From a virus (Duplodnaviria > Caudoviricetes), in the IMG/VR virus record IMGVR_UViG_3300031521_000054, positions 312 through 64,311 of that record: a stretch of 64,000 nucleotides of DNA. One strand, 5' to 3'. The notes beneath the pieces were generated by a model. The model saw nothing but the letters and a program-made list of their open reading frames with translations, made no database searches and had not been told where the DNA came from. The number at the start of each line of letters is the position of its first letter. Position 1 is the first letter of the stretch. Positions 34,738-64,000 of this stretch are shown here, piece after piece. Made by a program: the position numbers and the translations under genes.

Positions 34738-35262
34738 ATGATTTATGTGATGTTGTCAAAGGAAAATTCAGTCCTGCAAAAGAATATTGCGAATTTTCTC
34801 AAAGTATTCAAATATGATAATATTCAATATAAATTAATTTTCAATCCTAAGCATATTTTTGAATCAACAATTGCTGATATAAATCAATCAAAAGATATTA
34901 TACTTTGGAACCCAAACGTAGCATATTCAAATTTAGATTTGGTAAAACAATTTCAAAACTCCATCGTTATATTAGAAAGACCAACATTATTGATCCAAAA
35001 AATATCAGAGTCAAACCCTATAAACGAAAATGTCGCAATTAATCATGGGTTTTTTCTTATTTATATAAATCCTGATCGTGAAGAAATAACAAATAATGAT
35101 TGGAAACTTGTTGTTCAAGAAGATCAATATGTTATGACAATGGAAAATCTACTTATACTAATCAAAACAGATGAATCAAATTTACAAAAACAAATAAAAG
35201 TTTATTCAGATGTTTTTGATGATATTATACAAATAAATAAAGACCAAATAAATCTTTCATGA
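34738..35262 (+). CDS. Hypothetical protein
   Basis: 174 aa within the operon. Confidence 0.6.
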   Translation: MIYVMLSKENSVLQKNIANFLKVFKYDNIQYKLIFNPKHIFESTIADINQSKDIILWNPNVAYSNLDLVKQFQNSIVILERPTLLIQKISESNPINENVAINHGFFLIYINPDREEITNNDWKLVVQEDQYVMTMENLLILIKTDESNLQKQIKVYSDVFDDIIQINKDQINLS

Positions 35263-35921
35263 ATACATTAAAAATTTTTGTTTACGGAATGAGTGGTTCC
35301 GGAAAAGATACGATAGCAAATTATTTAAAAAATAGTTTGGGTTTTATGAAACTTCGAATAGCTGATACAATTAAACGCATTATTTGTGAAAAATGTGATT
35401 TGACTTTCGATGAATTGGAATTACAAAAACGTTCAAATAAAAGTCTTAGATCATTACATCATAGAGTTGGTGAATATCTTGACACTCCAATTGATATATA
35501 CTTAAATAATTTTAATGATAATAATGGCACTACGAATAGAATTAATCAATTGATTAATGGTACAGCATTAGATTATCAACATTTTTCAGATGATTTTATT
35601 CAGAAAACATGTAAAGTTATTTGTGATGTTAGAACTTTTGAATGGTCTGAACAATTATTAAATGCTGGATGGATAGGAATATTTTTAACACGTACAACTC
35701 CTGAATTTAAAGAATCAGATAATTTTACTGAACAGAATATTTTTTCAAATGGTGGAATTGAAAAACTTTGGAAAAGTACTTTGGATAAGGAAAAAATAAT
35801 TATCATCAATAATGATCCTGAAGTTTTTTTAAACATATATGATATTCCATTCATATTAACTGATGGTTCAGAAGAAAAATTAATTTTAACAGTCAAACAA
35901 AAAATATTAAATAAATTATAA
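35259..35921 (+). CDS. Deoxynucleoside monophosphate kinase, T4 gp1-like
   Basis: G.SGSGKDT.A P-loop, IADTIK, VICDVR. Confidence 0.75.
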   Translation: MNTLKIFVYGMSGSGKDTIANYLKNSLGFMKLRIADTIKRIICEKCDLTFDELELQKRSNKSLRSLHHRVGEYLDTPIDIYLNNFNDNNGTTNRINQLINGTALDYQHFSDDFIQKTCKVICDVRTFEWSEQLLNAGWIGIFLTRTTPEFKESDNFTEQNIFSNGGIEKLWKSTLDKEKIIIINNDPEVFLNIYDIPFILTDGSEEKLILTVKQKILNKL

Positions 35922-46758: not shown

Positions 46759-47709
46759 ATGATAAAAAGATTATATATTGATTTGGAAACAACAGGTACT
46801 GATTGTTATTCAAATGGTATTCATCAAATATCTGGAATAATAGAAATTGACGGAATAATTAAAGAAAAGTTTGATTTTAAAGTTAGACCATTCGAAGGTT
46901 GTGTCATAGTTGATGAAGCCTTAGAAAAAGGAAATGTAACTTTGGAACAAATTATGCAATATACTCCTGAAAAAGAAGTATTTAATTTTTTGACAATAAT
47001 ATTATCGAAATATGTTAACAAATTTAATCCAAAAGATAAATTAACTTTTGTCGGTTACAATGCAAATTTTGATAATGATTTCTTAAGACAATTTTGGTTA
47101 CGAAATAGAGATGAATTTTATAATTCAATCTTTTGGGGTAATATTCTTGATGTAATGGTTGTTGCAACTGAATTTTTTGAAGAATTTCGTCAGGAATTTG
47201 AAAATTTTAAATTGATGACTATTGCTCAAGCATTATTAATTTTAATTGATGAATCAAAGTTACATAATGCAATGTATGATATTGAAATAACTCGTGAAAT
47301 ATTACTTGAGTTAGTTAAACAACGTAAGGAAAATATTTTAAGGGAATTGGAAAAAGAATATCTTGTTGAAGTTAAAGAACCTGAAATTGAAGACGAAAAA
47401 GAAAACATTGAAGAAGAAAACTTTATTGAAAAGGAAATACGAAATCTTCCACCAAAAGAAATAATATTTACTCAAAATCCTAATGAAAGAACAACAACAG
47501 TTTATTCTTGGAATTTTATCATTTGGTTTGGGAAATACGCAGGTAGTCCTATTAAGGATATTATAGAAATGGATCCTATATATATAATTTATCTTCACAA
47601 CAATAAAATCAGAAGATTACAATTCTCAGAAAGATTACTTGAAGAAGTAAAATTTTCTATTGAAAAGAAAAAAATAGATTATATTCACGAACATAAAGAT
47701 GACGTATGA
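46759..47709 (+). CDS. DEDDh 3'-5' exonuclease (DnaQ-like) with a C-terminal FGKY module
   Basis: DLETTG, GYNA.FD..FL, LHNA.YD; C-terminal FGKYAG......DP.YI. Confidence 0.85.
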   Translation: MIKRLYIDLETTGTDCYSNGIHQISGIIEIDGIIKEKFDFKVRPFEGCVIVDEALEKGNVTLEQIMQYTPEKEVFNFLTIILSKYVNKFNPKDKLTFVGYNANFDNDFLRQFWLRNRDEFYNSIFWGNILDVMVVATEFFEEFRQEFENFKLMTIAQALLILIDESKLHNAMYDIEITREILLELVKQRKENILRELEKEYLVEVKEPEIEDEKENIEEENFIEKEIRNLPPKEIIFTQNPNERTTTVYSWNFIIWFGKYAGSPIKDIIEMDPIYIIYLHNNKIRRLQFSERLLEEVKFSIEKKKIDYIHEHKDDV

Positions 47710-48194
47710 TAGTTCAAGCTTATCATGGATCCTCCCATAAATTTGATGAATTTTCATTCAAAAAAATGGGTAAATCATCAGGAAATTCTGGTGCTGGATT
47801 TGGTTTGTATTTTTCTGACATAAAAGCAGATGCTCTCGGTTATGGTGATTATATCTACACATGTAGATTGGAATTAGAAAATAACGTTTCGAATGAAAGT
47901 ATTACATTTGATAAAAAAATGCTATTACTTTTTCTTGATAAACTTAATTTCACAGAAGATAAAAATAAATTTACAATTCATTTATTAAATGATTTCAAAA
48001 CAGATACGGAAATTATTGCTGAAATAGTTAAAACTATTGGTAATGGCAATATTGTATTCGAAATACTATCAGGATATGGTTATGATCATACAATTGACCA
48101 TAATAGTCCTGAACTTGAACATTCTACACATTATATTGTATATGCTCTTGATGCTATTGAAATTGTTAAACGAGAAACATTAGACGATATTTAA
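47706..48194 (+). CDS. ADP-ribosyltransferase-like protein (ART-PolyVal-like)
   Basis: YHGS...F..F....G....G.GLYFS...A..YG..IY. Confidence 0.65.
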   Translation: MIVQAYHGSSHKFDEFSFKKMGKSSGNSGAGFGLYFSDIKADALGYGDYIYTCRLELENNVSNESITFDKKMLLLFLDKLNFTEDKNKFTIHLLNDFKTDTEIIAEIVKTIGNGNIVFEILSGYGYDHTIDHNSPELEHSTHYIVYALDAIEIVKRETLDDI

Positions 48195-49979: not shown

Positions 49980-50019
49980 AAATCTTAAGGAAGATTTGTG
50001 TCCTTTAATTAGTTTACAT

Positions 50020-50205
50020 ATGGAAAATCATATCGTTGAAGGAGCGAAAGGAATACCTGGAACTCAAGGAATACCCGGAAGTATTGGTACTTTTTGTTCA
50101 CAGGAAGAATACGATAGAATCATGAATTTAGTGAATGTTTATCATGAAGAAATGAATAGAAAAAAATCATTTTGGGAAAGAATCAGAACATTTTTAGCAA
50201 TATAA
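50020..50205 (+). CDS. Small protein with a short collagen motif
   Basis: ATG 50020; GAKGIPGTQGIPGSIG. Confidence 0.5.
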   Translation: MENHIVEGAKGIPGTQGIPGSIGTFCSQEEYDRIMNLVNVYHEEMNRKKSFWERIRTFLAI

Positions 50206-50217
50206 TATTCAAACATA

Positions 50218-51636
50218 ATGGAAGCAGATAAAAAAGATTCGGTTGAAATAACTCCGAGACAAACAAAATCATTTTTAAATCATGAAGTTTTATCTTTCGC
50301 AAAGTACGTAATTGAAACACGTGCAATGCCAAATTTAATGGATGGTTTAAAAGTTGGTGCTCGTAAGATAATATGGGCTGCAATGACTGGGGATTTATCT
50401 AAACGTAAATTAATAAAAATGCCATCTTTGATTGGTGATGCAATGAAAATGCATTACAATCATGGTGATGCATCTTTGCTTAATACAATTGTTCAATTAG
50501 GTTCAACACATATTTACAAATACGCTCCGTTAGAAATTGTAGGACAAATTGGATCATTAAGAGTTCCAAAATGTGATACAGCACCGAGATATTTACATAT
50601 TCGTCCTTCACCTTATTTGGACTTTTTTAAGATTGATTCTGAATTGTTCGAACAACTTATTGAAGATGGTGACAAAGTTGAACCAAAATATTTCTTACCA
50701 ATAATTCCATTATCATTATTGATAAGAACAAATTCTCCTGGATTTGGATTTTCTTATCGTAGTTTTTCATATGGTTTGGATTCAATTATCGATAATTGCA
50801 TAAAAGCAATATCATCAGGCACTTGTAATGTTGATATTGACATAACACCAATAGTTCCATTTGTTGAAGGTATAAAACCTGAAAACATGTTATATAATGG
50901 AAATAAAAATTCATGGTATTGTGTTGGTGAATATGATATGGATTTTGAAAAAGATGTTTTGACTATTACTGATTTTCCATATGATGTTAGTTATGAAAAA
51001 TACGAAGAACATTTGAAATCATTGATTGATAAAAATTATATAATTGATTTTACTGATTTAAGTCAAGACAATAAAATTCGTTACATAATTAAATTCGCTC
51101 GTGGAAGGTTACAAACATTGTCAAGTGACAAATGGAAGTTTTTTCAGAATATGAAATTATTTTCAAAAATAACCAAAAATACTTTGAATTGTATTGATCA
51201 AGATGGCAAAACAATTTTATTTTTTGATACACCATATGAATTGATTGATTGTTTTGTTAGAAAACGTTTATTCTTTTATCAAGAAAGAAAAACTAAAACA
51301 ATTGTGGTTGTTAAAAAAGAAATTGGTGTGTTGAATAATAAAATAAAATTTCTTGAATTAGTTACCAATGATGAATTGATTATCAATAAACGACCATTAG
51401 AGGATATTAAAAAAGATTTGGATTCTTATGAAATTAGTTATGATGTTTTAAAAATGAATATCAGTAAACTAACCAAAGAAGAAATAGTTGAATTATATTC
51501 TGAACTGGAAAGTAAAAGAAAATATTTACATTATCTTGAAATAACATCAATTCAGGAAATGTATATTCGTGATTTAATTGATTTCAAAGAAAAATACTGT
51601 ACAATAATCAACACAAATTCAGTAACATCAATTTAA
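50218..51636 (+). CDS. Type IIA topoisomerase cleavage subunit (gp52, GyrA-like)
   Basis: RAMP..DGLK...RK, Y.HGD.SL, APRY with the catalytic Tyr, EP..FLPIIP. Confidence 0.95.
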   Translation: MEADKKDSVEITPRQTKSFLNHEVLSFAKYVIETRAMPNLMDGLKVGARKIIWAAMTGDLSKRKLIKMPSLIGDAMKMHYNHGDASLLNTIVQLGSTHIYKYAPLEIVGQIGSLRVPKCDTAPRYLHIRPSPYLDFFKIDSELFEQLIEDGDKVEPKYFLPIIPLSLLIRTNSPGFGFSYRSFSYGLDSIIDNCIKAISSGTCNVDIDITPIVPFVEGIKPENMLYNGNKNSWYCVGEYDMDFEKDVLTITDFPYDVSYEKYEEHLKSLIDKNYIIDFTDLSQDNKIRYIIKFARGRLQTLSSDKWKFFQNMKLFSKITKNTLNCIDQDGKTILFFDTPYELIDCFVRKRLFFYQERKTKTIVVVKKEIGVLNNKIKFLELVTNDELIINKRPLEDIKKDLDSYEISYDVLKMNISKLTKEEIVELYSELESKRKYLHYLEITSIQEMYIRDLIDFKEKYCTIINTNSVTSI

Positions 51637-51642
51637 CACAAT

Positions 51643-52950
51643 ATGAAAAAGATAGTCCATAGAATAAATGATTTCAGTATTTTGAGATTAACTGATAACG
51701 ATGATGTATCAGAATTTTTCAGAGTTAATCTTCAGCAAAACACAGACATAAACCAATATGTTGAATTAACAAGCGAAGATTCCACTGTTTGGGATTCAGG
51801 AGAATTTGCTCATCGTTTAAATAAATCTTATTCAAATGCTGGTTTATTTTATTCTACGTATGGTAGTGGAATCACATTAGGATCACTTAATGTTGGTATT
51901 TTATTGAAACGTGGATTTGATTGGAGCACTAAATTCGGAATACATGTACTAATAAAGTCATCAAAGACAGAAGAAGTATTTATTTCCAGATTATTAACAG
52001 TTGATGATTTCAGAGCAACTGGAAATAAAGAACTAATTGATGGTTGTTTCTGGTTAGAAGAAGCTTCAATGAACATTCCAAAAACGAATGATATTTTATT
52101 TGTTCAAATAACTACAATTGCATATGAAGATGTGACAATTGATGGTCCACAAGTAGGATATATTGCAAGTTATCCAACAGAATTTGTTCCATTAATTGAT
52201 GAAAAACCAATACCGGATTTTATCTTAAATAAAATATCTATTGATGCTAATCATTACTTATTGATTAAAATATTAACAACTGAAAACAAAACAGTTAAGC
52301 AATCAATACTTGATTATTTTGGTTTGACAATGTCAAATATTGAAGTTTCACATATCATAAATTATGGTACTGAAATTTTAGGATTTAGGACATTGAGAAT
52401 ATCGAACGAAGATGATTGGAGTTTACCAATCAATATTGCATTGAATTTAAAAGAGTTCGCAACTGAAACAAATGATTATGTAACAATTAATGTCAGTACA
52501 GAAATCTTGGTTGATAAAAAAATGATGAAAAGAGAATCAACAATTGGGACAAGTTTACTTTCAGCAATTAATCCATTGATTCAAGATAAAATTGTTTATC
52601 CTGAAAGTAATTTTCCTGTCAATGTTGTATTTGAAAATGTCATTAACAACACGATAATTGAAACACCAAAAGTAACAAAATTAGTTTCCATTTATCAACC
52701 GATTTTTATTGAAATGATTTCTGAATCTTTCAAAATTGAAAACAAATACATATATTTCGAAAATTTAACGGAAGAAGCAAGTTTATCAATTATAGGTTCA
52801 GATACTAATGAGACAATTTATTCTAAAATCACATCTGACAATAAAATTTACTTCGATTTATCTGAATTAAAACCAATTGATAAACCTACCACATATGAAT
52901 TGGTTAATTCAAAATTACAAATAATTGGAAAGGGTATTGTGACAATTTGA
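51643..52950 (+). CDS. Hypothetical protein, possibly structural
   Basis: 435 aa, beta-rich composition; no recognised motif. Confidence 0.55.
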   Translation: MKKIVHRINDFSILRLTDNDDVSEFFRVNLQQNTDINQYVELTSEDSTVWDSGEFAHRLNKSYSNAGLFYSTYGSGITLGSLNVGILLKRGFDWSTKFGIHVLIKSSKTEEVFISRLLTVDDFRATGNKELIDGCFWLEEASMNIPKTNDILFVQITTIAYEDVTIDGPQVGYIASYPTEFVPLIDEKPIPDFILNKISIDANHYLLIKILTTENKTVKQSILDYFGLTMSNIEVSHIINYGTEILGFRTLRISNEDDWSLPINIALNLKEFATETNDYVTINVSTEILVDKKMMKRESTIGTSLLSAINPLIQDKIVYPESNFPVNVVFENVINNTIIETPKVTKLVSIYQPIFIEMISESFKIENKYIYFENLTEEASLSIIGSDTNETIYSKITSDNKIYFDLSELKPIDKPTTYELVNSKLQIIGKGIVTI

Positions 52951-52973
52951 TAATAATTTTTCGGATATAAAAT

Positions 52974-53003
52974 CAGTCTATATTAATTATAAAACGTGGA
53001 TAT
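52974..53003 (+). promoter_or_regulatory. Bipartite phage promoter/operator motif
   Basis: CAGTCTAT-N14-GTGGATAT. Confidence 0.55.
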
Positions 53004-53027
53004 ATTAACAAATATCCGCGTTTTTTT
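52991..53027 (+). terminator. Intrinsic terminator overlapping the promoter motif
   Basis: AAAACGTGGATAT-loop-ATATCCGCGTTTT, ending in a T7 run. Confidence 0.65.
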
Positions 53028-53043
53028 ATCTCAAATCTAAGAT

Positions 53044-56000
53044 ATGTCAAGCAAAGTACTAACAGCTCAAGATATAGATGGTAATCAAAAATCAATTGAA
53101 AAATTGATCGAAGAAAATGTTGTTGAATTTAACAAATCAAGAACAAGAAAAAAATTAAAGGAAGTCCGAGATAACATAAAATTAGAAACTCCTGAAGGTG
53201 TTGATGTTAGAATTTTGACTAAGGATGATATTCAACAAATAAAAAATAGTCTTGTCAATGATGAGGATGCTAAAGAATTTAGAATTAATCAACAACAAGT
53301 TTTATCCATAAAGAAAGATAATTATTGGTTAATGCGAAAGACAATTCAGGATTTGAATGACTTGAATGAATTTTCAGCAGAAATTGAAAGAAATCACATA
53401 CAAACAATTGATAATTTTTTAACATTCGAAGAAGTAATAAAACAAAACATTGGAACATTAAATTTATTTCACAAAATACTTGAATATAGAAAATCGAATA
53501 TTGGTCTATACTTAGACACTTATAAAAATAAAATATTATCATTCAAACAAGATTCGTTAGAAATTTTATTGAACATGCGTGAAATATATTCAATTGATAA
53601 AACAATTGATGATATTGATCTGTATGAAAAATTCGAAATGGAATCGAATATTGATATGTCTAACAAACTTGCTGATATTTGTTTTCACAAGTATATTAAT
53701 AGTACAAGTGAATTAAAGAATGACAATATAATAAACGAGTTTTCTAAGAATAGTGGAAATATATTGGAAAAGTTCGTAACGAATCAAGTCATAAATAACA
53801 AAATGTTAGGTGTATTGTTATTATCTGGAATGAATGATCAACGAACATCATTTATTTCAAATAACAGTGTGACTTGTTTAAAGACTATGTATTCGAATAA
53901 TGCGAATAATGAATTTGTATATACAACAAGAACACTTGGAGAATTATTATTTGAAATCACAAATGATGAGTTAAAAGATATTTCAAAACAATACAAACAA
54001 CAAATATATTTAACATATGATGGTACTCGACCATCAACTGAAGAATATTACAAATGGAATGGTTTACAAGTATTTGATATTGACTTGAAAGAATGGGATG
54101 GCAATATTGATTTGTTAAAACGAAAGATGTATGATTATTTGCAAGATTTTCATTGGTTTTTATGGATATGTAAATCAGCATCTGGAAAAGGTATTCACGT
54201 TTATACCAAAGTAGCCCCACCACATCATGTGTATATAAAAGCAGCTGAAAATGAATACATCTCAAAGTATTGGTTCAGTGTAAATTATGCACATAAATCC
54301 TCAATAATATATGATATTTTATACAGATTACACAAGGATAAATCTTCAATAGTTTTCAATGATTGTTTCATTGAAGGTTTTGAAAATAAATTTCTTGATA
54401 ATGTTGTTAGAAGAATTACAGCAGGTATTCGTTTAACTTATGATCCAAGTCCATTGATAAACAATAACTTTATTGATGTACATGTTGGATTAGGATTGTC
54501 ACAAACAATTGATGGATATAATTATCAAAAAACAATAACTGATGTTCTTTTAAGAAAGACAAAATTTCAGACTCAGATGATTGACAAAATTAATAATGAT
54601 TTGTTAGTTATTAATGTTGCAGATATGGAAAATGATAAACCTTCAGATATTGATTTAAGTAAATTCGTATCTTTAGGAGTTGACATATCAAATATTTCAT
54701 CATTATCAAGATCAGCAATCAATTACAACATGCGTTATAATGTTTGTAATACTCTTGCATCTTTGTTTGGAAAGGACGGATTATCAATAGCACATACATT
54801 ACTTGATTCAAAAGGTTGTAAAAATATCGGAGAAATCAATTCATTTTATTCTTGTGCAATTAGTAATGGTAAAAAACCATCAAAATTTGGATTAGATATT
54901 CTAAAGAGATGTGGTATAATAAAATCAATTGATCCTGAAATACGTGAAGTTGTTGATGATAATTTCAAAAACGGAATTAGAAAGGCAATTGAACAATCGT
55001 TAAACAATAAATTAGTTCAAAAGAATATTGAATTAAATAATTACGAATATTTATCAGACAAAAAAGCAATATTATTAAATCCAAGTAAAGGTGGAATAAG
55101 TAATTCAAAAGTAAACATAATCTTTTCACCACCGGGTACTGGAAAAACAGAGTTTATCAAGAATCTTGCGAAAGATGGTAAACGAATCCTACTTGTATTA
55201 CCTTACATATCTGTAATTAAAAACAAAATTGAAACAGATGAATCAATAATGTCAATGTTTGAATGTTATTATGGTTCGAAAGATATTAAGTTAATAGAAT
55301 ATGGAATCAATGCTGTCACAACATTTGATAAATTCGCACGTTCAAATTATGAGAAATTATCAAAAATGTTTGATTATATTTTCATAGATGAATCACATTT
55401 ATTGTTCACAAGTTCATATAGAATTGAAGCCACAGCTAATGTGATTAAGAAAATTAAAGAATTATTTTTCATATCATCTAATGATCCATTTGCAGCAAAA
55501 TTATGTTTACTCACAGGAACTGAAACAGGAGAATCTTATTTCTTCGGTAGTATTGCCAACATAATTCGTGTGAATAAAAAATCATTAAATAAAACAATGG
55601 AATTTCTAATATGTGATGATATATTAGATTCTATTACACGATTAGCAAATCATGCTTACATGTTACTTCAGGAAGGTTACAGATTATTATTACCTACAAA
55701 TAAGGGTGAAATATATTCTGAAAAAATAATTGGAATGATTGAACATCTTTTAGGTAGACCATTAAAGTATGGTTATTATAAGCGATCAAATACTGAACAA
55801 GAAATTTGTAGATTAATAAACGATAACAATACTGTTGGTGATTATGAAGTAATTTTCTGCTCAAACTATTTAAGTGTTGGTGTTGACATAAACGATGGTG
55901 GTTTTGTTAACATTAATGATAAGGAAATATTATTTGCTTCAATATATCTGGGGCCATTCTCCGGATATGAAATAGAACAATTTAATGCACGTATTCGTAA

Positions 56001-57219
56001 AACTGGAATACGATCAGTATATTGTATTCAAACTCAAAAAGCTGATGGTTCAACAAATGATTTATTACTTGAAGAACCAAATTTATTACTAAGAATTACA
56101 GAAGAAGATCGAGATAATTTTATTGACGATAAGGCCATAGCATCTTCAAAACAAGAATTTTTAGCTCAATATGATCCAATCTTACATAAAATATCAACTC
56201 CTGGTTTTAGTTATTTCAATGGTAAAATCAGATTCAATTTGGAAGAATATGAATTAGTATCTTTTGAAAATAAATATAACGAGTGTATGCAGCATCCTGT
56301 TAAAGTTGCTCGTGAATTATCAAAATATGGATATAAAATCAATGTCAATATGGAATTTGATGGATTAGATATTACATTACAGGAAGAACTAAAAAATGTT
56401 GGAATCAAAGCTGCCAAGGATGAAAAGATTAGAAAACATTCGTTATTAGTTGGAACATTTATCGAATTAGTTGAAAAAAATACATATACAAATGCTCATG
56501 GTTTAGAATTTAACGATATAATATCTTGGATTGGTAAGCATCCAGATAATGTTATTGAAGACAGAGATTTGGAAACTTTTATTGAAATTGAATTTGATGT
56601 TTTTGCAACACCATTGAATTGTAAGGTCAAATCAAAAGAAGCTCTTGAAGATATGTTCAAACCAGCCAAATATCTAATTTCAAAATATTCAGTAACAAAA
56701 GCAGTTGATATTATTAATCAATTTGTTGATGAAAACGGAATATTGAAACAAAAATTATTCAAACGATCAATTAACTTGCTCAAACTGATTGATAGTTCAG
56801 ATGCAAATGAACTTGCTGATCCATTAGCAAAAATATTAACAAATATTTATGATTTTGTTGATAAGTTCGAAATATCTAAAGAATTTAGAATTGGTTATAA
56901 TACATATCAAGCAACAATGGATGAATGGGTTCATGGTTATATTGATGATTTAGGAATACGCATTAATACTGAATATGGATTTGATAAAATTAAGGATTCT
57001 TTGGTTGAAATGTTATCAGATGTTGCAACTAAATCAACAAGTAAAAATGGTATCAGATTTGTTTATAATAAAATGCCTGATCAAGACAGTAATTCAGTTT
57101 TAAATAGACAAAGTGTCGATAGTATGGTGGAAAGAATGTTTAAAATAACAAGCGATGTTATAACAACCAATAAAAAATCAAGACAAAAACATATCATATT
57201 ACAGACACAAAGTTTTTAA
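53044..57219 (+). CDS. AEP primase-polymerase (BT4734/VirE-N-like) + PriCT-like + SF2 helicase fusion
   Basis: GLQVFDID and S.SGKG.HVY primase motifs; Y.....LASLFG..G....H; SPPGTGKT; IFIDESH; LTGT; SVGVD; EQF..RIR. Confidence 0.75.
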   Translation: MSSKVLTAQDIDGNQKSIEKLIEENVVEFNKSRTRKKLKEVRDNIKLETPEGVDVRILTKDDIQQIKNSLVNDEDAKEFRINQQQVLSIKKDNYWLMRKTIQDLNDLNEFSAEIERNHIQTIDNFLTFEEVIKQNIGTLNLFHKILEYRKSNIGLYLDTYKNKILSFKQDSLEILLNMREIYSIDKTIDDIDLYEKFEMESNIDMSNKLADICFHKYINSTSELKNDNIINEFSKNSGNILEKFVTNQVINNKMLGVLLLSGMNDQRTSFISNNSVTCLKTMYSNNANNEFVYTTRTLGELLFEITNDELKDISKQYKQQIYLTYDGTRPSTEEYYKWNGLQVFDIDLKEWDGNIDLLKRKMYDYLQDFHWFLWICKSASGKGIHVYTKVAPPHHVYIKAAENEYISKYWFSVNYAHKSSIIYDILYRLHKDKSSIVFNDCFIEGFENKFLDNVVRRITAGIRLTYDPSPLINNNFIDVHVGLGLSQTIDGYNYQKTITDVLLRKTKFQTQMIDKINNDLLVINVADMENDKPSDIDLSKFVSLGVDISNISSLSRSAINYNMRYNVCNTLASLFGKDGLSIAHTLLDSKGCKNIGEINSFYSCAISNGKKPSKFGLDILKRCGIIKSIDPEIREVVDDNFKNGIRKAIEQSLNNKLVQKNIELNNYEYLSDKKAILLNPSKGGISNSKVNIIFSPPGTGKTEFIKNLAKDGKRILLVLPYISVIKNKIETDESIMSMFECYYGSKDIKLIEYGINAVTTFDKFARSNYEKLSKMFDYIFIDESHLLFTSSYRIEATANVIKKIKELFFISSNDPFAAKLCLLTGTETGESYFFGSIANIIRVNKKSLNKTMEFLICDDILDSITRLANHAYMLLQEGYRLLLPTNKGEIYSEKIIGMIEHLLGRPLKYGYYKRSNTEQEICRLINDNNTVGDYEVIFCSNYLSVGVDINDGGFVNINDKEILFASIYLGPFSGYEIEQFNARIRKTGIRSVYCIQTQKADGSTNDLLLEEPNLLLRITEEDRDNFIDDKAIASSKQEFLAQYDPILHKISTPGFSYFNGKIRFNLEEYELVSFENKYNECMQHPVKVARELSKYGYKINVNMEFDGLDITLQEELKNVGIKAAKDEKIRKHSLLVGTFIELVEKNTYTNAHGLEFNDIISWIGKHPDNVIEDRDLETFIEIEFDVFATPLNCKVKSKEALEDMFKPAKYLISKYSVTKAVDIINQFVDENGILKQKLFKRSINLLKLIDSSDANELADPLAKILTNIYDFVDKFEISKEFRIGYNTYQATMDEWVHGYIDDLGIRINTEYGFDKIKDSLVEMLSDVATKSTSKNGIRFVYNKMPDQDSNSVLNRQSVDSMVERMFKITSDVITTNKKSRQKHIILQTQSF

Positions 57220-57235
57220 TTTTTGGATTTAAAAT

Positions 57236-57265
57236 CAATCCATTTATTTTGAATTTCACGAATAT
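57236..57265 (+). promoter_or_regulatory. Bipartite phage promoter/operator motif
   Basis: CAATCCAT-N14-ACGAATAT. Confidence 0.6.
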
Positions 57266-57297
57266 ATTAATTATGTACTTTCATATAAATAACACTC

Positions 57298-58947
57298 ATG
57301 AATATACTCGAAGAAATTCAAGATAATCCAAGTCTTCTTCCTACTGAGAAAGTTATCTTAATGAGAAATACATTCATTTCTCAACAGAATCAAAATACTG
57401 ACGAAAAAATTTATATTAGCAATATTGGTGATTATTTATCAGACAATTTTTCAAAAATAGATGGATTTGATTATAGATGGAACTCATTAATAACAAGCAA
57501 CCCTCTCCTATTTGAAGATGTTGATTATATCAGAGTTAAGGATTTTATAACTAACGAAATAACACAAGAAGAAATTGCAGCATACAAAAGAGGTGAATTA
57601 CGAGAACTTTACGCAACTTTTGAAAATATGCTTATTTGTAATTTAGCATACTACGATCGAATAATGAATTTTTGTACCATGATATTTTTACATTATGTGA
57701 GAATATCTGAAGATTCAATAACATCTGAATATTTGGATGAATTACCATATTTGATTGAAATGACTCCAACAAGAATTTGGTGTTGTGTTCTATCAGGGTT
57801 AAATAGCAGTGAATGGGAATTAAATTATGGTTGGAATACAAAAGTAGTTAGTTGTGAAAAACAAATGCTTATTGAAAACAATTGGAAACTATTATATTCT
57901 AATCCAATTTTTGGTAGATTCATAGAATACTCTTCATTGAGAGCAAATACGTCAGGATTTAGACAAACATTACTTTCAGATAAAACAAGCAATAAAAAAT
58001 TGTCACAAGTATGTGCAAAATTTACCAAATCTTCAACAGCAATTTCAGATGGAAATCTTGAAACATTAATAGATTACGTTAGGGAACAGGAAAGAATCAA
58101 TAGTAAATTATATTTTTCATTATTCAATTGTTTGAAAAAACTATTCAATAATGATGAATCATTATTTGCTATTTACGTATTTGCTGAGGAATTTTTCATT
58201 CACACTGCTAAATTTTCGATGAAAGTAAAGAAAAGTGAAAATGGTAAAATTACTAAGGATTATTTGGCAAATAGTTACGAATGTTTCATAGCTGAAGAAT
58301 TTTTATATGATAGTATTCGAGTTCAAATTGAATGGGCTAAATATAAATTACCTCCTCATTTTGAATACGAAAAGCAAATTTTGACAAGTCTGTTAAATGA
58401 AATGTTGAAAGGAAATTATAGAAATATATTGGCAATAAAAAGAATGAATGAATACGGAATATTATCGAAAATAACATTTGCAGGAGTATTTGATAATATT
58501 TATATCAGTGAAGAATTAATGGTTGATAATCGTTGCATAAAATCATCAAAGATTTGTTTATCAAAAGCAAATGCTGCGAAATACGTTGTTGACAGAGGAT
58601 ATTATATTTTTGGTTTAACTGATGATGTTTATAAATTCATATTGTATGATGATGAAAATGTCGTTATTAATCGACAAGTTTTAATTGATCATTATGGTAA
58701 TTATTGTGTGCAAGTTATTAAACATATGTTCGAAGTAATTGCATTACATAACTTATCAAAGAATGATATTATTGATGTTGTTTGTTCAGGAATTTTAAAT
58801 CCAAATAAATTGAACAATGAAAACATACGATATACGAAATTAAAAAGTAATAATATTTCAGCAAAAAATCTAATGTCATTAGCATTAGACAAACAGAATA
58901 AAGGTGGTGATCGTAAAAAGTCTTATTGGAAAATAATTGAAAATTAA
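57298..58947 (+). CDS. Hypothetical protein
   Basis: 549 aa; no recognised motif; first gene of the operon containing the ThyA homologue. Confidence 0.65.
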   Translation: MNILEEIQDNPSLLPTEKVILMRNTFISQQNQNTDEKIYISNIGDYLSDNFSKIDGFDYRWNSLITSNPLLFEDVDYIRVKDFITNEITQEEIAAYKRGELRELYATFENMLICNLAYYDRIMNFCTMIFLHYVRISEDSITSEYLDELPYLIEMTPTRIWCCVLSGLNSSEWELNYGWNTKVVSCEKQMLIENNWKLLYSNPIFGRFIEYSSLRANTSGFRQTLLSDKTSNKKLSQVCAKFTKSSTAISDGNLETLIDYVREQERINSKLYFSLFNCLKKLFNNDESLFAIYVFAEEFFIHTAKFSMKVKKSENGKITKDYLANSYECFIAEEFLYDSIRVQIEWAKYKLPPHFEYEKQILTSLLNEMLKGNYRNILAIKRMNEYGILSKITFAGVFDNIYISEELMVDNRCIKSSKICLSKANAAKYVVDRGYYIFGLTDDVYKFILYDDENVVINRQVLIDHYGNYCVQVIKHMFEVIALHNLSKNDIIDVVCSGILNPNKLNNENIRYTKLKSNNISAKNLMSLALDKQNKGGDRKKSYWKIIEN

Positions 58948-58952
58948 ATAAA

Positions 58953-59855
58953 ATGGAAGAAAGATTGAATTTTGAACGTCAATATGCTCATAGCTTAATT
59001 GATTTGTTAGACTCAGGTGTAAAGACAAAAAATCGCACAGGTATTGATACTTTGGTTAAACAACATCAATATTATCATTTGAAAAATATTTCTTCTGATT
59101 TTCCATTATTGAAAGGTAAAAAAGTATTTCCAAAAAATTCGTTAATTGAATTGATGTGGATGCTTAATGGTCGTACAGATGTTAAATGGTTACAAGATCG
59201 CGGAGTTAACTTTTGGAATCAATGGCAAAATGCTGAAGGAACAATAGGTAAATCATATGGTTATCAATTCCGTAATTTTAATGGAGTTGATCAAGTACAA
59301 GATTTATTTGATGGACTTTGTGCTGATCCAACTTCAAGAAGAAATATTATTGAACTTTGGAATGCAGGAGATTTAAAAGAAATGACATTAACTCCATGTG
59401 TATTTAGTTTTCAATTTAATTGTATTCCAATCGATAACGATAAGAAATTTTACATTGATTTACATGTTGTCCAAAGATCAGGTGATTCATTTCTTGGTGT
59501 ATGTTCAGACGTAATGGTTGCAGCATGGTTTTTAGAATCTGTTTGTAATTTTGCAACCAATAGTCTTTCAAATACTAATGATTTTCGATTTAGTTCTCGA
59601 GATGTTCATTATACAATTAACGACTTTCATCTGTATGAAAATCATATTGAACAAGCAAAACAATATTTGCGAAATGTGAATGAAAATAAATCAAACATTA
59701 TTGATGAAAAAGTTTCAATTCATATTCAATCAGAAGCATATTTCGATTTTGACATATTTTTGAAATATTCGGATATGACAGAATATAAAAATTTCATCAT
59801 GAATAAATTTTATGTTGATGTTTACAATCACATTAAAGCCGAAGTAGCAGTATGA
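58953..59855 (+). CDS. Thymidylate synthase family enzyme with a dCMP-type specificity residue
   Basis: RTG, FPLL..KK, SRR, PC (catalytic Cys149), QRS.D.FLG, HLY, AEVAV C-terminus; Asp186 replaces the conserved Asn. Confidence 0.9.
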   Translation: MEERLNFERQYAHSLIDLLDSGVKTKNRTGIDTLVKQHQYYHLKNISSDFPLLKGKKVFPKNSLIELMWMLNGRTDVKWLQDRGVNFWNQWQNAEGTIGKSYGYQFRNFNGVDQVQDLFDGLCADPTSRRNIIELWNAGDLKEMTLTPCVFSFQFNCIPIDNDKKFYIDLHVVQRSGDSFLGVCSDVMVAAWFLESVCNFATNSLSNTNDFRFSSRDVHYTINDFHLYENHIEQAKQYLRNVNENKSNIIDEKVSIHIQSEAYFDFDIFLKYSDMTEYKNFIMNKFYVDVYNHIKAEVAV

Positions 59856-60040
59856 AACAGTTAAGAGATGGTACAAATGTCAGAGCAAGAGGATATTATT
59901 TCTTACTCGATTGGAATGATCAAGATGGAAAAGTTTACATTAACAAGACTTTCAATAAGAATAGTCAATTTGAACTTGATATATTTGAATATAAAAAACT
60001 CTTTGACCATGCAACAAAAGAAGATTCAGAAGAAATGTAA
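59852..60040 (+). CDS. Small hypothetical protein
   Basis: 62 aa, ATGA-coupled to the ThyA homologue. Confidence 0.55.
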   Translation: MKQLRDGTNVRARGYYFLLDWNDQDGKVYINKTFNKNSQFELDIFEYKKLFDHATKEDSEEM

Positions 60041-60149
60041 TGATGAAAAATGTCCAGTTTGTGGAAGTAAAAATTTCACAATAAAGAATTGTAAAAGAAT
60101 TTGTATTTGTGGTTATGCTTGGATAAGATTAAAAATTAAAACAATGTAA
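60009..60149 (+). CDS. Small zinc-ribbon protein, start uncertain
   Basis: CPVCGS...C.CGY in frame with ATG 60009. Confidence 0.45.
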   Translation: MQQKKIQKKCNDEKCPVCGSKNFTIKNCKRICICGYAWIRLKIKTM

Positions 60150-60152
60150 TTT

Positions 60153-60581
60153 ATGACAATTTATTTAGATTTTGACGGAACCGTAGTGGAACATGAATTT
60201 CCACAAATTGGTAGGAATAATTTCGGTTGTATGGAAGTAATTTTAAAACTTCAAGAAGCTGGACACAGAATCATACTTAATACATATCGTGCAGATAGTG
60301 CTGATGGAACATTGGAAAAAGCATTGAATTATCTTAATGAAGATTCTTTCATGTTTTTCAAAGATCGTGAAACAGAAATTCAACAAATCACAGAGCATAC
60401 AAGTAATAAATTATATCCAGCAGCGTGGAATTGGAATGATATGCTCGAGTCTAAAATAATATTCATTGACGACATTACTCCTGGTATTCCTTTGAAAAAA
60501 TGTTGTATGGTACAAGGAAATATGGTTGATTGGAAAGAATTAGATTTACAATTTATTGAACACAAAGTTTACGAAAAATGA
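60153..60581 (+). CDS. HAD-superfamily hydrolase (BT0820-like)
   Basis: DFDGT motif I, ILNT.R, FIDD. Confidence 0.8.
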   Translation: MTIYLDFDGTVVEHEFPQIGRNNFGCMEVILKLQEAGHRIILNTYRADSADGTLEKALNYLNEDSFMFFKDRETEIQQITEHTSNKLYPAAWNWNDMLESKIIFIDDITPGIPLKKCCMVQGNMVDWKELDLQFIEHKVYEK

Positions 60582-60742
60582 AATGTCCATATTGTAATCA
60601 AACAAATACTCGTAAAGATTCTGAAGGGTATTGTATAAAACATGGATGTAACGAAAAATCTAAACAAGAAAAAATCGCAATAAAAGAATACACATATAAT
60701 CAAATAATAAAAAATAATTATGCAAATAATTCACAGCGCTGA
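60578..60742 (+). CDS. Small zinc-binding protein, absent from the ORF track
   Basis: 54 aa MKCPYC...YC..HGC; ATGA-coupled to the HAD gene. Confidence 0.55.
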   Translation: MKCPYCNQTNTRKDSEGYCIKHGCNEKSKQEKIAIKEYTYNQIIKNNYANNSQR

Positions 60743-63700
60743 TATTCAGATCAAAAACAGAGAGAAGAATTTGTACATGGCTTCTCAGAATACTTTGAAA
60801 CAAATTGAAAGTATCATTGAAAAAACAGAAACACCAATTTATGTTATTGCTGGTGATCTTTTCGAATATGCTACACCAACAGAAAGTGAACGACAATTGA
60901 TTTATAATCATATCTCAAGACTTTTGAATATTGAAACTCTTAAAGAATTGGTTATAATGCTTGGAAATCATGATCTTATCAAGGATAAAAAGCAATCTGA
61001 AAATAATGTTGGATATAATTCAATTTCTGTTTTCACTGAAATGTTAAATACTCTTGATGAAAAACTTGCATCAAAACTTATTTACATTAAAAATTCAGGA
61101 ATTTATCAATCCAAAGTATGTCCTGTAATAAATTGGATTGGTTATTCTCTTGAAGATAATGGTCAACCTAATATTGAAAATATTGATACAACAAAAGTAA
61201 ACATATGTCTTTTCCATGCAATGTTGAAAGAATATGTTGATTCAGTTAAGTTACCATTAAGATCTGACTTATATCACAGTCTTATTTCGATTGAATCTTT
61301 TCCTGAAAATTGTTTAATTCTTGCTGGAGATATACACAAAAATTTAATGTTTCAAGGTTTAAATGGCCAAACATTTATTTATCCAGGTTCTCCAATGCAA
61401 CATACTTCATCTGAAGGTTTCTATTGGTCAATTGGAGAAGAATTTAAAGTAACAGCTGCTGAATTTAAATCTATCAAATCATATTCATTTGATGAAACTC
61501 TTGATAAGATCGCATTATCAGATATTCAAATGTATGATCTTCCATTAGATGATTCAGTTTGTTATCATACTCTTGAACTTGATTCAAAAATACCATGGGA
61601 AATTATTAAAGATAATCTTGAAAAAATTACTCCTGAGTTTGGTAATTCCAATACATTCATAAAAGTTAAGAGTTCAAATATTTTTGTCAAACATGAAAAA
61701 GAAATGTTTGAAATGTTACTTAACAAACAGAATGCATACGAATACAAACCAAAAATTGATTTTGAATATGATAAATTTGTTCAAACAACAAATGCATCAG
61801 ATAACAAAGTTATTCAGGAGATAATGGAACAAAAATCTTCTGAATTGGCAACAAAAACAGGAGAAATTGCAAATAAAGACCTTATTCTTGGAACTGAAAA
61901 CATAGATGATTTGATATTAAATTCAGATCAACTAAATAAATTATTTGGTTCTATTCTTGATGATCTTTTAAACGGATTAAAAAATAGTTTTGATTCAGAC
62001 ATAACCAAAGATGATATTCGCAATAGTATCACAACATTATTTGATGAACAATTAAATAATACTATTTCAAAATCATCAAAACGTTACAATATTTTACTTG
62101 AAGCTATTGAAACAAATGGTTTTATGAGTCTTGGAGCAAACAGAATAAATCTGAATATTCCAGGGAAAGTACGTATTTTGGGTACTAATGGTATTGGTAA
62201 GACAACTTTATATAACATGATTCATTGGGTTATTACCGGATTAGTTTATCCTGGAATGTCCAAAGCAAATGCTGTAAAAAATAATCTAATAGTATTCAAC
62301 AAAAAACTATTGGAAAATGATTTTGTATTTGTTAAAATGCCAATGATTATCAATGAATTATCAGTTGTCATAACTCGTGTAGCCACACGTAATTGGAAAA
62401 ACAATACAACTGATTTTCAGAAAAATTCACTAAACTGGAAAGATTTTATTTCAACAGTTGATAGACAAATTAAACTTGAAGTTACTGGTTTAGATGGAGT
62501 AACAAAAACATACACAGGAGATCAAGCTGAAAGTGCAATAGCAACTTGGTTTGGTCAAACTACTGACAATATTTTGTTTTTAAATGGGGCAAAAATCGAA
62601 AGTGTTCTTCGCCTACCTTCTGATAAATTGAACGAAATGATTTTGAATTTCATTGGCGTTGATTATTTGAAAAAATTAGAAGAAAATCTTGATGCTGTCA
62701 AATCAACATTAACAAAAGCAAAACCAAAAAGGAATAAGGAAGATATTCAGACTTCGTTGATTGATAATAAAATTTATCTTGAAAGAGCTCAAGAAGATTT
62801 GGATATGACTGAGTTTCAATTAGCCGGTTATGACATTGATGAAAAAACATCTAAATCTAATCATGACAAGATTCAATCAGAGTTATTAAGTATTGGAAAT
62901 ATTCCTGATCAATTAGAAGAAAATTTATGCGAAATTGTTAAGTTGAATAATTTTCTTTCTGTTTTTGAAATTAAAATCGTAAAAGATTTGATTCCATTTA
63001 CTGAAGTTAAACCTATCAAAGATCAAGAATTAATTGATATTACTAATAATGAAATTTTAGTATTACAGAGAGGTATTGAAGAAAAACATACAAATATTAA
63101 TAAGTTCAAAGAAACTAAAACTAATTTATTATCAGTTGATTTACAAAATCTTATCAATGAAAATAATCAATTTTACGATGAAGAAATTGAAAGACTTCAA
63201 GGAAATCATGATATGTATAATAATAGCATGAAAATTGGTTATGATAAGATTCAAAAACAAATTGATGAAATTATTCATCAACTGAAGGATAAGAAAATGT
63301 CAGCTGGTTTAATGTTGAATGAATTGAAAGTCACAAGATCAAATTTAGTTCAAAAAATATCTGCAAATAATGTTGAAATTGTTTCAGGTGTTTGTTCAAA
63401 ATGTGATAAACCATTATCTGAAACACCTGAAATTTGGGAAGTTCATAAAAATAAATTGATAATAAATAACACTGAACTTCAAGTTGAAATTACAGGAATG
63501 AAAAAATCAATTGATGAACAACAAATATTATGTGACAAAATTGATAAGTTTATTTTGGATTATGTGAGTCACAGAGATTTAGCGATAAAAAATGATTATT
63601 CTGTTTTTGATAATGGAATAAAAATAATTGAAGAGTATCGTGAAGGAATTGATTTATCTTTAAAAGCTCTTAATGTTTGGAATGATGATGTCAATATAAT

Positions 63701-64000
63701 GACTGAAAAGAAAAATCAATGGAAAAAAACTGGTCTTATTCAATATGGTGATTATTCTGTTTTAGATGCTTTTCCCAATATTCCAGATTTAGCAAGTTTT
63801 ATCACTAAATACAAAGCAATATTAGCATGTATTTCACAATTAGATATTTTCATAAAAGAAGAAAACATAGAAATATCTGAATTGAAAGAAAAAATTCAAA
63901 CAATAACAAGTACTCATAATGATTTGTTAACCAAATATCAGGATAAATTAGATATTAATATTAAGCAAAATGCTGACATTAATATATACAATATTACTGT
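60720..64000 (+). CDS. Fused Mre11/SbcD nuclease-Rad50/SbcC ATPase, truncated by the window end
   Basis: Hand translation from ATG 60720: ADIQ, GDLFE, GNHD, GDIH, YPGS, then NGFMSLG, GTNGIGKTT at 62181 and CSKC at 63393 in the same frame. Confidence 0.9.
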   Translation, partial: MQIIHSADIQIKNREKNLYMASQNTLKQIESIIEKTETPIYVIAGDLFEYATPTESERQLIYNHISRLLNIETLKELVIMLGNHDLIKDKKQSENNVGYNSISVFTEMLNTLDEKLASKLIYIKNSGIYQSKVCPVINWIGYSLEDNGQPNIENIDTTKVNICLFHAMLKEYVDSVKLPLRSDLYHSLISIESFPENCLILAGDIHKNLMFQGLNGQTFIYPGSPMQHTSSEGFYWSIGEEFKVTAAEFKSIKSYSFDETLDKIALSDIQMYDLPLDDSVCYHTLELDSKIPWEIIKDNLEKITPEFGNSNTFIKVKSSNIFVKHEKEMFEMLLNKQNAYEYKPKIDFEYDKFVQTTNASDNKVIQEIMEQKSSELATKTGEIANKDLILGTENIDDLILNSDQLNKLFGSILDDLLNGLKNSFDSDITKDDIRNSITTLFDEQLNNTISKSSKRYNILLEAIETNGFMSLGANRINLNIPGKVRILGTNGIGKTTLYNMIHWVITGLVYPGMSKANAVKNNLIVFNKKLLENDFVFVKMPMIINELSVVITRVATRNWKNNTTDFQKNSLNWKDFISTVDRQIKLEVTGLDGVTKTYTGDQAESAIATWFGQTTDNILFLNGAKIESVLRLPSDKLNEMILNFIGVDYLKKLEENLDAVKSTLTKAKPKRNKEDIQTSLIDNKIYLERAQEDLDMTEFQLAGYDIDEKTSKSNHDKIQSELLSIGNIPDQLEENLCEIVKLNNFLSVFEIKIVKDLIPFTEVKPIKDQELIDITNNEILVLQRGIEEKHTNINKFKETKTNLLSVDLQNLINENNQFYDEEIERLQGNHDMYNNSMKIGYDKIQKQIDEIIHQLKDKKMSAGLMLNELKVTRSNLVQKISANNVEIVSGVCSKCDKPLSETPEIWEVHKNKLIINNTELQVEITGMKKSIDEQQILCDKIDKFILDYVSHRDLAIKNDYSVFDNGIKIIEEYREGIDLSLKALNVWNDDVNIMTEKKNQWKKTGLIQYGDYSVLDAFPNIPDLASFITKYKAILACISQLDIFIKEENIEISELKEKIQTITSTHNDLLTKYQDKLDINIKQNADINIYNIT

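Follow-up and report, generated by a model that had tools for sequence, protein, structure and literature searches.

We analysed a 64,000-nucleotide stretch of a tailed phage (Caudoviricetes; IMG/VR record IMGVR_UViG_3300031521_000054), hereafter the window, which encodes a homologue of the thymidylate synthase (TS) ThyA immediately downstream of a conserved gene for a 549-amino-acid (aa) protein. At the position that sets pyrimidine specificity, Asn177 in E. coli ThyA, the homologue has Asp, and the His that follows the catalytic Cys is replaced by Val. From its residues and their conservation, its fold, its clade and the gene content of its relatives, we infer that the protein is probably a folate-dependent C5-methylase of deoxycytidine monophosphate (dCMP) on an otherwise classical ThyA scaffold. 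Whether the virion DNA would then carry 5-methylcytosine at most cytosines is an evenly balanced question. Taken as a whole, the proposal of a dCMP C5-methylase making 5-methylcytosine nucleotides for phage DNA is one that we moderately favour.

The window is the 64,311-base record minus its first 311 bases, and the record was rated about 28% complete by CheckV. Its long open reading frames (ORFs) lie nearly all on the plus strand, with a G+C content of 26-36%, and its DNA recurs in contigs of runs labelled peat metagenome. Megablast of positions 50000-64000 against deposited phages found no close DNA relative, and the best tblastn identity of the ThyA-family protein to deposited phages was about 35%. 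The last 399 aa of the final ORF had no relative among metagenome contigs, so that the phage could not be extended. Pfam scans of 30 window ORFs revealed a replication and nucleotide module of T4 type (Table 1).

The ThyA homologue and its active-site residues

The protein matched PF00303 over residues 10-268 (E 2.2e-54; 184.8 bits vs a cut-off of 24.3) and phrog_160 (E 2.1e-60). The thymidylate synthase equivalog TIGR03284 was matched above its cut-off (121.9 bits; cut-off 108.35), and seven other thymidylate synthase equivalogs (six NF models and TIGR03283) fell below theirs, for example NF002497 with 164.2 vs 327. An AF2 model of high confidence (pLDDT 95.6, pTM 0.93) had the full ThyA fold, and its best Foldseek matches were to E. 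coli ThyA (E 3.5e-27; TM-score by target 0.88-0.91), on which it superposed over the whole chain. Phmmer comparisons gave E values of 1.4e-29 for RB69 td, 7.5e-26 for T4 td exon 1, 4.5e-14 for the Xp12 enzyme, 1.4e-10 for the SP8 enzyme and 3.7e-6 for T4 gp42. The first-pass annotation, made from the sequence alone, had described the protein as a classical ThyA unlike gp42, and both the phmmer values and the Foldseek result agree with it.

HMMER alignments to solved ThyA chains placed QRSGDSFLGVCSD on QRSADVFLGVPFN; 120 distinct solved ThyA-family sequences were matched at E <= 0.001 (best E 6.4e-36). E. coli numbering, used below for alignment positions, was checked on four canonical 264-aa ThyAs, where C146, H147, L143, N177, P175 and F176 were exact in all four and D169 was confirmed in three. 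On this numbering, the two substitutions read at first pass, Asp186 at N177 and Val150 in place of His after catalytic Cys149, both stand. The C-terminus reads ...KAEVAV.

Table 1 Coordinates of the ThyA-family gene, its active-site codons, other window features and homologues of the 549-aa gene (window positions unless a locus is named)
Feature	Position	Strand	Remarks
ThyA-family gene, 300 aa, predicted deoxycytidylate C5-methyltransferase (5-methyl-dCMP synthase)	58953..59855	+	PF00303, phrog_160, AF2, Foldseek
Leu146 (E. coli L143)	59388-59390	+	TTA; bulky hydrophobic
Cys149 (E. coli C146)	59397-59399	+	TGT; catalytic
Val150 (E. coli H147)	59400-59402	+	GTA
Asp178 (E. coli D169)	59484-59486	+	GAT
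Cys184 (E. coli P175)	59502-59504	+	TGT
Ser185 (E. coli F176)	59505-59507	+	TCA
Asp186 (E. coli N177)	59508-59510	+	GAC; pyrimidine-specificity position
Conserved 549-aa gene	57298..58947	+	ends 6 bases before ThyA start
62-aa ORF	59852..60040	+	ATG overlaps TS stop codon (ATGA); no Pfam or PHROG match
142-aa ORF, N-terminus DFDGT	60153..60581	+	phrog_1238 E 1e-13; no Pfam match
T4 gp1-like deoxynucleoside monophosphate kinase	35259..35921	+	PF21448 E 1.8e-6; phrog_139 E 4.5e-10
Clamp-loader ATPase	start 33412		Pfam
5'-3' exonuclease	start 35924		Pfam
T4-type large terminase	start 40011		Pfam
Topoisomerase II subunits	starts 44798 and 50218		Pfam
DEDDh exonuclease	start 46759		Pfam
denV-like glycosylase	start 49447		Pfam
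1391-aa helicase-containing protein	start 53044		Pfam
Long AAA_23 protein	start 60720		Pfam; runs off window end
549-aa gene homologue	L013:4085-5713		directly upstream of TS
549-aa gene homologue	L016:7996-9636		directly upstream of TS
549-aa gene homologue	L017:7436-9097		directly upstream of TS
549-aa gene homologue	L018:6593-8209		directly upstream of TS
549-aa gene homologue	L021:7815-9470		directly upstream of TS
549-aa gene homologue	L049:8107-9804		directly upstream of TS

Two other samples yielded contigs (X2 record 4, 59497-59660; X4 record 12, 59477-59867) with the same codons at positions 184-186 as the window; a further sample, X1, may be the one from which the window came. A strain variant on a short contig (X4 record 13, depth 2.7) carried two synonymous changes there, TCA>TCT (Ser) and GAC>GAT (Asp), together with GTT>TTT (Val189Phe). 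The comparison was of assembled contigs of short-read runs, not raw reads, and the Asp186 codon appeared in it only as GAC or GAT; AAC, which the first-pass annotation had named among the observations that would overturn its prediction, was not seen.

An exhaustive HMMER search matched 8962 proteins at E <= 0.001, 142 of them at E <= 1e-30. A FastTree phylogeny (LG+gamma, midpoint root, SH-like supports) covered 258 sequences, comprising 252 database proteins of 230-500 aa, the window's enzyme and five reference enzymes; of 262 database proteins, ten fell outside this length range and were dropped. The sampled proteins are the nearest matches of the window's enzyme, and the frequencies given here describe its neighbourhood rather than the whole family. 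The catalytic Cys was invariant in the other 257 sequences. Cys149 and the phosphate-binding residues R28, R129, R130, R175 and S176 are present at columns that were 95-100% conserved among them, and, apart from positions 147 and 175-177, the enzyme keeps every column conserved in at least 80%, including E66, W88, W91, Y102, H226 and Y228, as well as the C-terminal I-x-A-x-x-A columns. Pro occupies position 175 in 250 of the 257 others, and an aromatic residue, Phe or Tyr, position 176 in 237 (over all 258 sequences, Tyr in 161 and Phe in 76); this near-invariant pair belongs to the folate-facing loop. The Cys184-Ser185 that replaces it here, a change not emphasised at first pass, was unique among the 258 sequences. 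The nearest homologue, P0001 (61% identity), has Pro-Tyr-Asp at 175-177. The sole other Cys-Ser that we met is in a distant TS homologue (L076:9911-10780 (+); 195-kb contig), which has Cys-Ser-Asn there in an automatic alignment of a divergent sequence.

The clade that holds the enzyme has 113 members and a support of 0.997; position 177 is Asp in 92 of them and Asn in 21. None of the 113 has His at 147 (Val 49, Met 26, Gln 15, Phe 14, Leu 5), and all have Asp169 and Leu or another hydrophobic residue at 143. The Xp12 enzyme branched outside all 254 ThyA-like sequences, and T4 gp42, the RB69 5-hydroxy-dCMP synthase and the SP8 deoxyuridine monophosphate (dUMP) hydroxymethylase formed the outgroup. 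The tree with ThyA, gp42 and dUMP hydroxymethylases proposed at first pass thus sets the enzyme in a ThyA-like clade, apart from both Xp12 and gp42. A similar picture came from a collection of 5.8 billion proteins, where 404 proteins were matched at E <= 1e-10. Among the best 120 of these 404, the first 88 metagenomic clusters (E <= 2.7e-47; 35-61% identity) were a distinct group, followed by canonical 264-aa ThyAs at about 31-35%; position 177 was Asp in 74 and Asn in 14 of the 88, and His followed the Cys in just one. The Asp177/non-His147 state is therefore not a chance event.

Within the Asp177 clade, nested sub-clades carry Asn177, with Gln, Glu or Phe for His at 147 (P0031, P0046, P0052, P0053, P0055, P0063, P0064, P0068, P0069, P0075, P0077, P0078 and P0080, and a six-member group with the signature L-F-D-N). 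Their placement suggests that, on one scaffold, pyrimidine specificity has reverted or has switched repeatedly. Phage contigs of about 40-67 kb (IMG/VR loci L023-L071) carry a further large group of TS homologues, about 255-270 aa in length, with Leu143-Tyr147-Asp169-Asp177. These loci were fetched by a pattern containing P-Y-D, so that their Asp was selected and no frequency was taken from them; the PF00383 deaminase was found in none of 14 records of this type searched.

Published work gives these residues a meaning. MetaGPA compared 433 aligned TS sequences from viromes and found that modified-cytosine and unmodified contigs were best told apart at positions 177 and 147 (PMC8670742), which upholds the dCMP signature (Asn177 to Asp with His147 replaced) on which the first-pass annotation was built. 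For the engineered L. casei H199X/N229D enzymes invoked at first pass, a literature search returned no paper; Liu & Santi 1992 (N229D) is among the references of PMC8670742. The Xp12 enzyme and five of seven tested Asp177 metavirome enzymes produced 5-methyldeoxycytidine (5mdC) in E. coli (bioRxiv 10.1101/2024.12.05.627091). According to a 2026 paper in NAR (PMC13326640), Asp177 goes with dCMP, a bulky hydrophobic residue at 143 with methyl and an acidic one with hydroxymethyl products, and Asn169 marks flavin-dependent 5-hydroxy-dCMP synthases. In one alignment of positions 143/147/169/177, the signatures were L-H-D-N for RB69 td, D-T-D-D for T4 gp42, E-T-N-D for the RB69 5-hydroxy-dCMP synthase, D-N-D-N for the SP8 dUMP hydroxymethylase and N-P-D-D for the Xp12 enzyme, and the T4, RB69 and SP8 reference enzymes reproduced the published rules. 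The window's enzyme has L-V-D-D, a signature that predicts a 5-methyl-dCMP synthase and not a 5-hydroxymethyl- or 5-hydroxy-dCMP synthase. Given this signature, the other columns kept and the superposition on the whole of ThyA, reductive methylation of dCMP is the best reading.

Compared with canonical ThyA (EC 2.1.1.45; E. coli ThyA, T4 and RB69 td), the enzyme keeps the fold, the catalytic Cys, the Arg cluster, E58, W80, W83, Y94, D169, H207, Y209, L143 and the C-terminus, but is only about 28-35% identical and differs by Asn177 to Asp, His147 to Val, Pro175 to Cys and Phe176 to Ser. With the Xp12 enzyme (MT664984) it shares the ThyA family, Asp177, a residue other than His at 147, a non-acidic 143 and Asp169; Xp12, like the relatives described below, has no TS homologue besides its Asp177 enzyme, which is accompanied by a gene of the cytidine deaminase family. 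The two enzymes are nevertheless not orthologous, as the phmmer values (4.5e-14 for Xp12 vs 1.4e-29 for canonical td) and the tree position of Xp12 indicate. The Xp12 enzyme lacks the ThyA C-terminus kept here, and Xp12 is a siphovirus of roughly 64 kb, whereas the present phage is large and has T4-like replication genes. T4 gp42 belongs to the same superfamily and likewise has Asp177 and no His after the Cys, but differs in its Asp at 143, its C-terminus, its phmmer distance and its place in the separate outgroup clade. The 5-hydroxy-dCMP synthases (RB69 gp48 and DLP3 gp80; PMC13326640) are ThyA homologues with Asp177 too; their diagnostic changes, Asp169 to Asn and Leu143 to Glu, are absent from the window's enzyme.

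Syntenic relatives and pathway genes

The gene order 549-aa ORF, TS, long AAA_23 gene was common to five IMG/VR loci (L013, L016, L017, L018 and L021), of which L016 and L021 also share a topoisomerase subunit and the 1391-aa protein with the window. In a sixth locus, L049, the 549-aa ORF lies directly upstream of the TS gene, and the TS of all six loci has Asp177. Whole-record searches of the five syntenic records (G001-G005) found one PF00303 match in each, always with Asp177, and ThyX in none; dihydrofolate reductase (DHFR) was above cut-off in G002 and G005 and below it in G004. The presence of DHFR in relatives fits a reaction that produces dihydrofolate. Tet/JBP dioxygenase (PF12851) was matched in none of the five records, a result that is uninformative as the control was unmatched too.

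The most complete arrangement was found in G005, a record of 208.5 kb with terminal repeats that was rated 100% complete. Its TS, which is 34% identical to the window's enzyme and has Asp177 but keeps His147, is followed by a 306-aa gp56-like nucleoside triphosphate pyrophosphohydrolase and DHFR (L018:9905-13039 (+)); the 306-aa protein is 39% identical over 79 aa to T4 gp56 (E 2e-15) and matches phrog_173 (E 7.3e-21). A sole Asp177 TS with an adjoining deoxycytidine triphosphatase (dCTPase) and DHFR is what a route from dCTP through dCMP to 5-methyl-dCMP (5mdCMP), yielding dihydrofolate, needs. The three genes form a compact candidate cassette for cytosine replacement. The first-pass annotation had suggested looking for a second ThyA or ThyX, DHFR and a dCTPase; the window's own record, at about 28% completeness, has no ThyX, DHFR or dCTPase gene, and the relatives have the DHFR and dCTPase genes just described and no ThyX.

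A PF00383 deaminase was present in five of six lineage records, missing only from G001, which is 18% complete. Two further records, G034 and G036, had an unclear TS signature, and G036 carries a deaminase. As a marker of Asp177 phages the deaminase was considered and rejected, given that none of 20 other Asp177 records carries one. In the two closest large relatives, the PF00383 domain (MafB19-like) is fused to a C-terminal DHH/DHHA1 phosphoesterase (470 aa in G002, L087:421-1833 (-); 480 aa in G003, L088:1486-2928 (+)). A literature search for a dCMP deaminase-DHH fusion found nothing; the phosphoesterase might act on nucleotide phosphates. The region downstream of TS in G004 (L021:12201-13386 (+)) encodes a D12-class N6-adenine DNA methyltransferase (PF02086, E 1.5e-15) as well as a PNKP-type HAD phosphatase (PF25109, E 1e-25), with an RNA ligase gene behind them.

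The 549-aa gene, whose end lies 6 bases ahead of the ThyA start, is probably in one transcription unit with the ThyA gene. Its product is better conserved across the relatives than TS (48-65% vs 34-50% identity). It had no Pfam or PHROG match, and of at least 120 metagenomic clusters that it matched, none has a Pfam domain or source name. Its AF2 model, though confident (pLDDT 84), had no Foldseek match in PDB at E <= 0.001, the best VIA-align Z was 5.8 over one sub-domain only, Atlas feature matches were at most 0.80, and the Atlas model was poor. The gene travels with the whole replication module, and linkage alone therefore does not tie it to TS; as a modification partner it was set aside, the Pfam, PHROG, Foldseek and VIA-align searches having given no supporting evidence.

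Among the other window genes, the gp1-like kinase is, on its presumed substrate range, a candidate for phosphorylating 5-methyl-dCMP. The 142-aa ORF downstream of TS begins with DFDGT, which we take to be HAD motif I; no HAD family was matched in the searches, and tblastn at 1e-5 in ten related loci gave no match, so that the ORF is not conserved beside TS. A 162-aa ORF (47706-48194 (+)) matched ART-PolyVal, the ADP-ribosyltransferase found in polyvalent proteins, at a score below the cut-off (E 2.7e-6; 28.6 vs 31.2 bits). Weak below-cut-off matches to DXD glycosyltransferases (PF04488, E 2.8e-4) were found in a 199-aa ORF (12637-13236 (+)), which has no PHROG match.

Contrary evidence and alternative products

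Several observations weigh against dCMP methylation and cytosine replacement. Two of the seven signature-predicted enzymes gave no 5mdC (bioRxiv 10.1101/2024.12.05.627091), the rule for position 143 is given only as a correlation in PMC13326640, and the Xp12 enzyme itself has Asn at 143 in our alignment. The window's enzyme is far from the Xp12 enzyme, the sole reference dCMP methylase (phmmer E 4.5e-14), and its assignment therefore rests on convergent signature residues. Phe176 contacts folate in E. coli ThyA. At positions 175-176 the three non-methylating references, with Arg-Asn (gp42), Gln-Leu (RB69 5-hydroxy-dCMP synthase) and Gly-Ala (SP8), also lack Pro-Phe/Tyr, so folate handling may differ in the window's enzyme; its Cys-Ser pair may leave a small opening for another fate of the methylene intermediate. 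As to gene content, a gp56-like dCTPase was recognised in one of seven lineage records (G005), MazG in none of five and PRA-PH in one of five, and a means of excluding dCTP is therefore not evident. The window's own record, at about 28% completeness, has no DHFR, ThyX, deaminase, MazG, PRA-PH or gp56-like gene. The deaminase is not specific to Asp177 phages (none of 20 other Asp177 records, one of eight Asn177 records). Exclusion of dCTP, and therefore full replacement of cytosine, is not supported by the gene content of the closest relatives.

An alternative is a route in which dCMP is methylated and the 5-methyl-dC pool is then deaminated essentially fully to T nucleotides, the module serving as an alternative source of dTTP and the DNA containing ordinary C and T. 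Such a thymidylate route would account for an Asp177 enzyme that is the only ThyA homologue, without ThyX, in all five syntenic relatives, for the deaminase in five of six lineage records and for the lack of a recognised dCTPase in six of seven, and the linked deaminases have been proposed to convert 5mdCTP to dTTP (bioRxiv 10.1101/2024.12.05.627091). However, the same source reports complete replacement by 5-methylcytosine in Xp12, which has the same module, and contigs with modified cytosine show an enrichment of Asp177 TS genes (PMC8670742). The gp56-like dCTPase between TS and DHFR in G005 fits depletion of dCTP, and the 20 other Asp177 phage records without a deaminase indicate that Asp177 is not generally tied to a thymidylate bypass. 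We regard this route as unlikely.

The methylene intermediate could instead be hydrated to 5-hydroxymethyl-dCMP, as in T4 gp42, possibly with further decoration of the DNA. The first-pass annotation had left the product open between 5-methyl- and 5-hydroxymethyl-dCMP; under the rules of PMC13326640, the kept Leu143 and Asp169 favour the methyl product and disfavour the hydroxymethyl one. Leu143 takes the place of the Asp or Glu of hydroxymethylases, the ThyA-type C-terminus is kept where the gp42, RB69 and SP8 enzymes end otherwise, and canonical ThyA is a much nearer relative of the enzyme than gp42 is. The nearest homologue has an ordinary Pro-Tyr before its Asp, and DHFR is kept in relatives whose sole TS is the Asp177 form. 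Set against this are the Asp177 common to the enzyme and gp42, the loss of Pro175-Phe/Tyr176 that it shares with the gp42, RB69 and SP8 enzymes and that could loosen the folate pocket, and the weak DXD glycosyltransferase match mentioned above. Hydroxymethylation is, on this evidence, quite unlikely. We hold it improbable, too, that Cys184-Ser185 would alter folate handling towards a product other than 5-methyl-dCMP, such as a hydrated or trapped C5 adduct, or that one Asp177 enzyme together with the deaminase-DHH phosphoesterase fusion would supply both 5-methylcytosine and T in a cytosine-first economy without a gp56-type dCTPase.

That the enzyme would still be a thymidylate synthase, methylating dUMP mainly or also despite Asp186 and leaving the phage DNA unmodified, is very unlikely. 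It is canonical at all positions except 147, 175, 176 and 177, Asn177 forms are nested in its clade (21 of 113), showing that the scaffold supports both states, and no other thymidylate synthase was seen in the relatives by the PF00303 and ThyX searches; yet dTMP can come from the host, the change of Asn177 to Asp is a documented specificity switch (mutagenesis papers cited in PMC8670742), and Asp, present in 92 of 113 clade members, was kept through a synonymous change in the strain variant. It is highly improbable that the enzyme acts on another substrate (CMP, for instance, like MilA), carries out other C5 chemistry or is crippled by Cys-Ser: although that pair is unique in our comparison and TS homologues have surprised before, as with a flavin-dependent 5-hydroxylase (PMC13326640), none of the catalytic and phosphate-binding residues is lost, contigs of other samples carry the same Cys-Ser-Asp codons, with only synonymous changes there in a variant, and the kept Asp169 speaks against the hydroxylase type.

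Proposed pathway and implications

In the dCMP methylation that we favour, Asp186 would accept the N3/4-amino face of cytosine instead of uracil, with the neighbouring His replaced by Val. Cys149 would attack C6 of dCMP, and methylene-tetrahydrofolate would donate the carbon. Because the enzyme keeps the water-excluding Leu146, Asp178 and the closing C-terminus, we propose that the exocyclic methylene would be reduced by the folate hydride rather than hydrated, giving 5-methyl-dCMP and dihydrofolate. The activity would be that of a dCMP C5-methyltransferase, presumably EC 2.1.1.54. The gp1-like kinase and the host nucleoside diphosphate kinase could raise 5-methyl-dCMP to 5-methyl-dCTP, which would be incorporated as 5-methylcytosine. 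In related phages, some of the 5-methyl-dC nucleotides could be converted by the deaminase to thymidine nucleotides, a step already suggested for Xp12.

Earlier papers (eLife 2021, bioRxiv 2024, NAR 2026) already describe the signature, connect it with modified DNA and identify what such enzymes make, and in this respect no new question is opened. The first-pass view of a rare strategy known from XP-12 is outdated, natural Asp177 TS homologues being common in viromes (bioRxiv 10.1101/2024.12.05.627091). What is particular here is the ThyA-like clade apart from Xp12, the large genome with T4-like replication genes and the Cys-Ser at 175-176; literature searches on dCMP methyltransferase and on 5mdCMP/PaMx74 returned no title or abstract start that describes this clade. 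Methylation sequencing can draw tools from such enzymes and the deaminases that partner them, a use to which they have been put (bioRxiv 10.1101/2024.12.05.627091). Modified DNA, for its part, biases virome sequencing and restriction-based methods. If the proposed activity is correct, large AT-rich phages with T4-like replication genes would join those that build their DNA from 5-methyl-dCTP, and the switch from Asn to Asp would have become fixed on classical ThyA scaffolds on more than one occasion.

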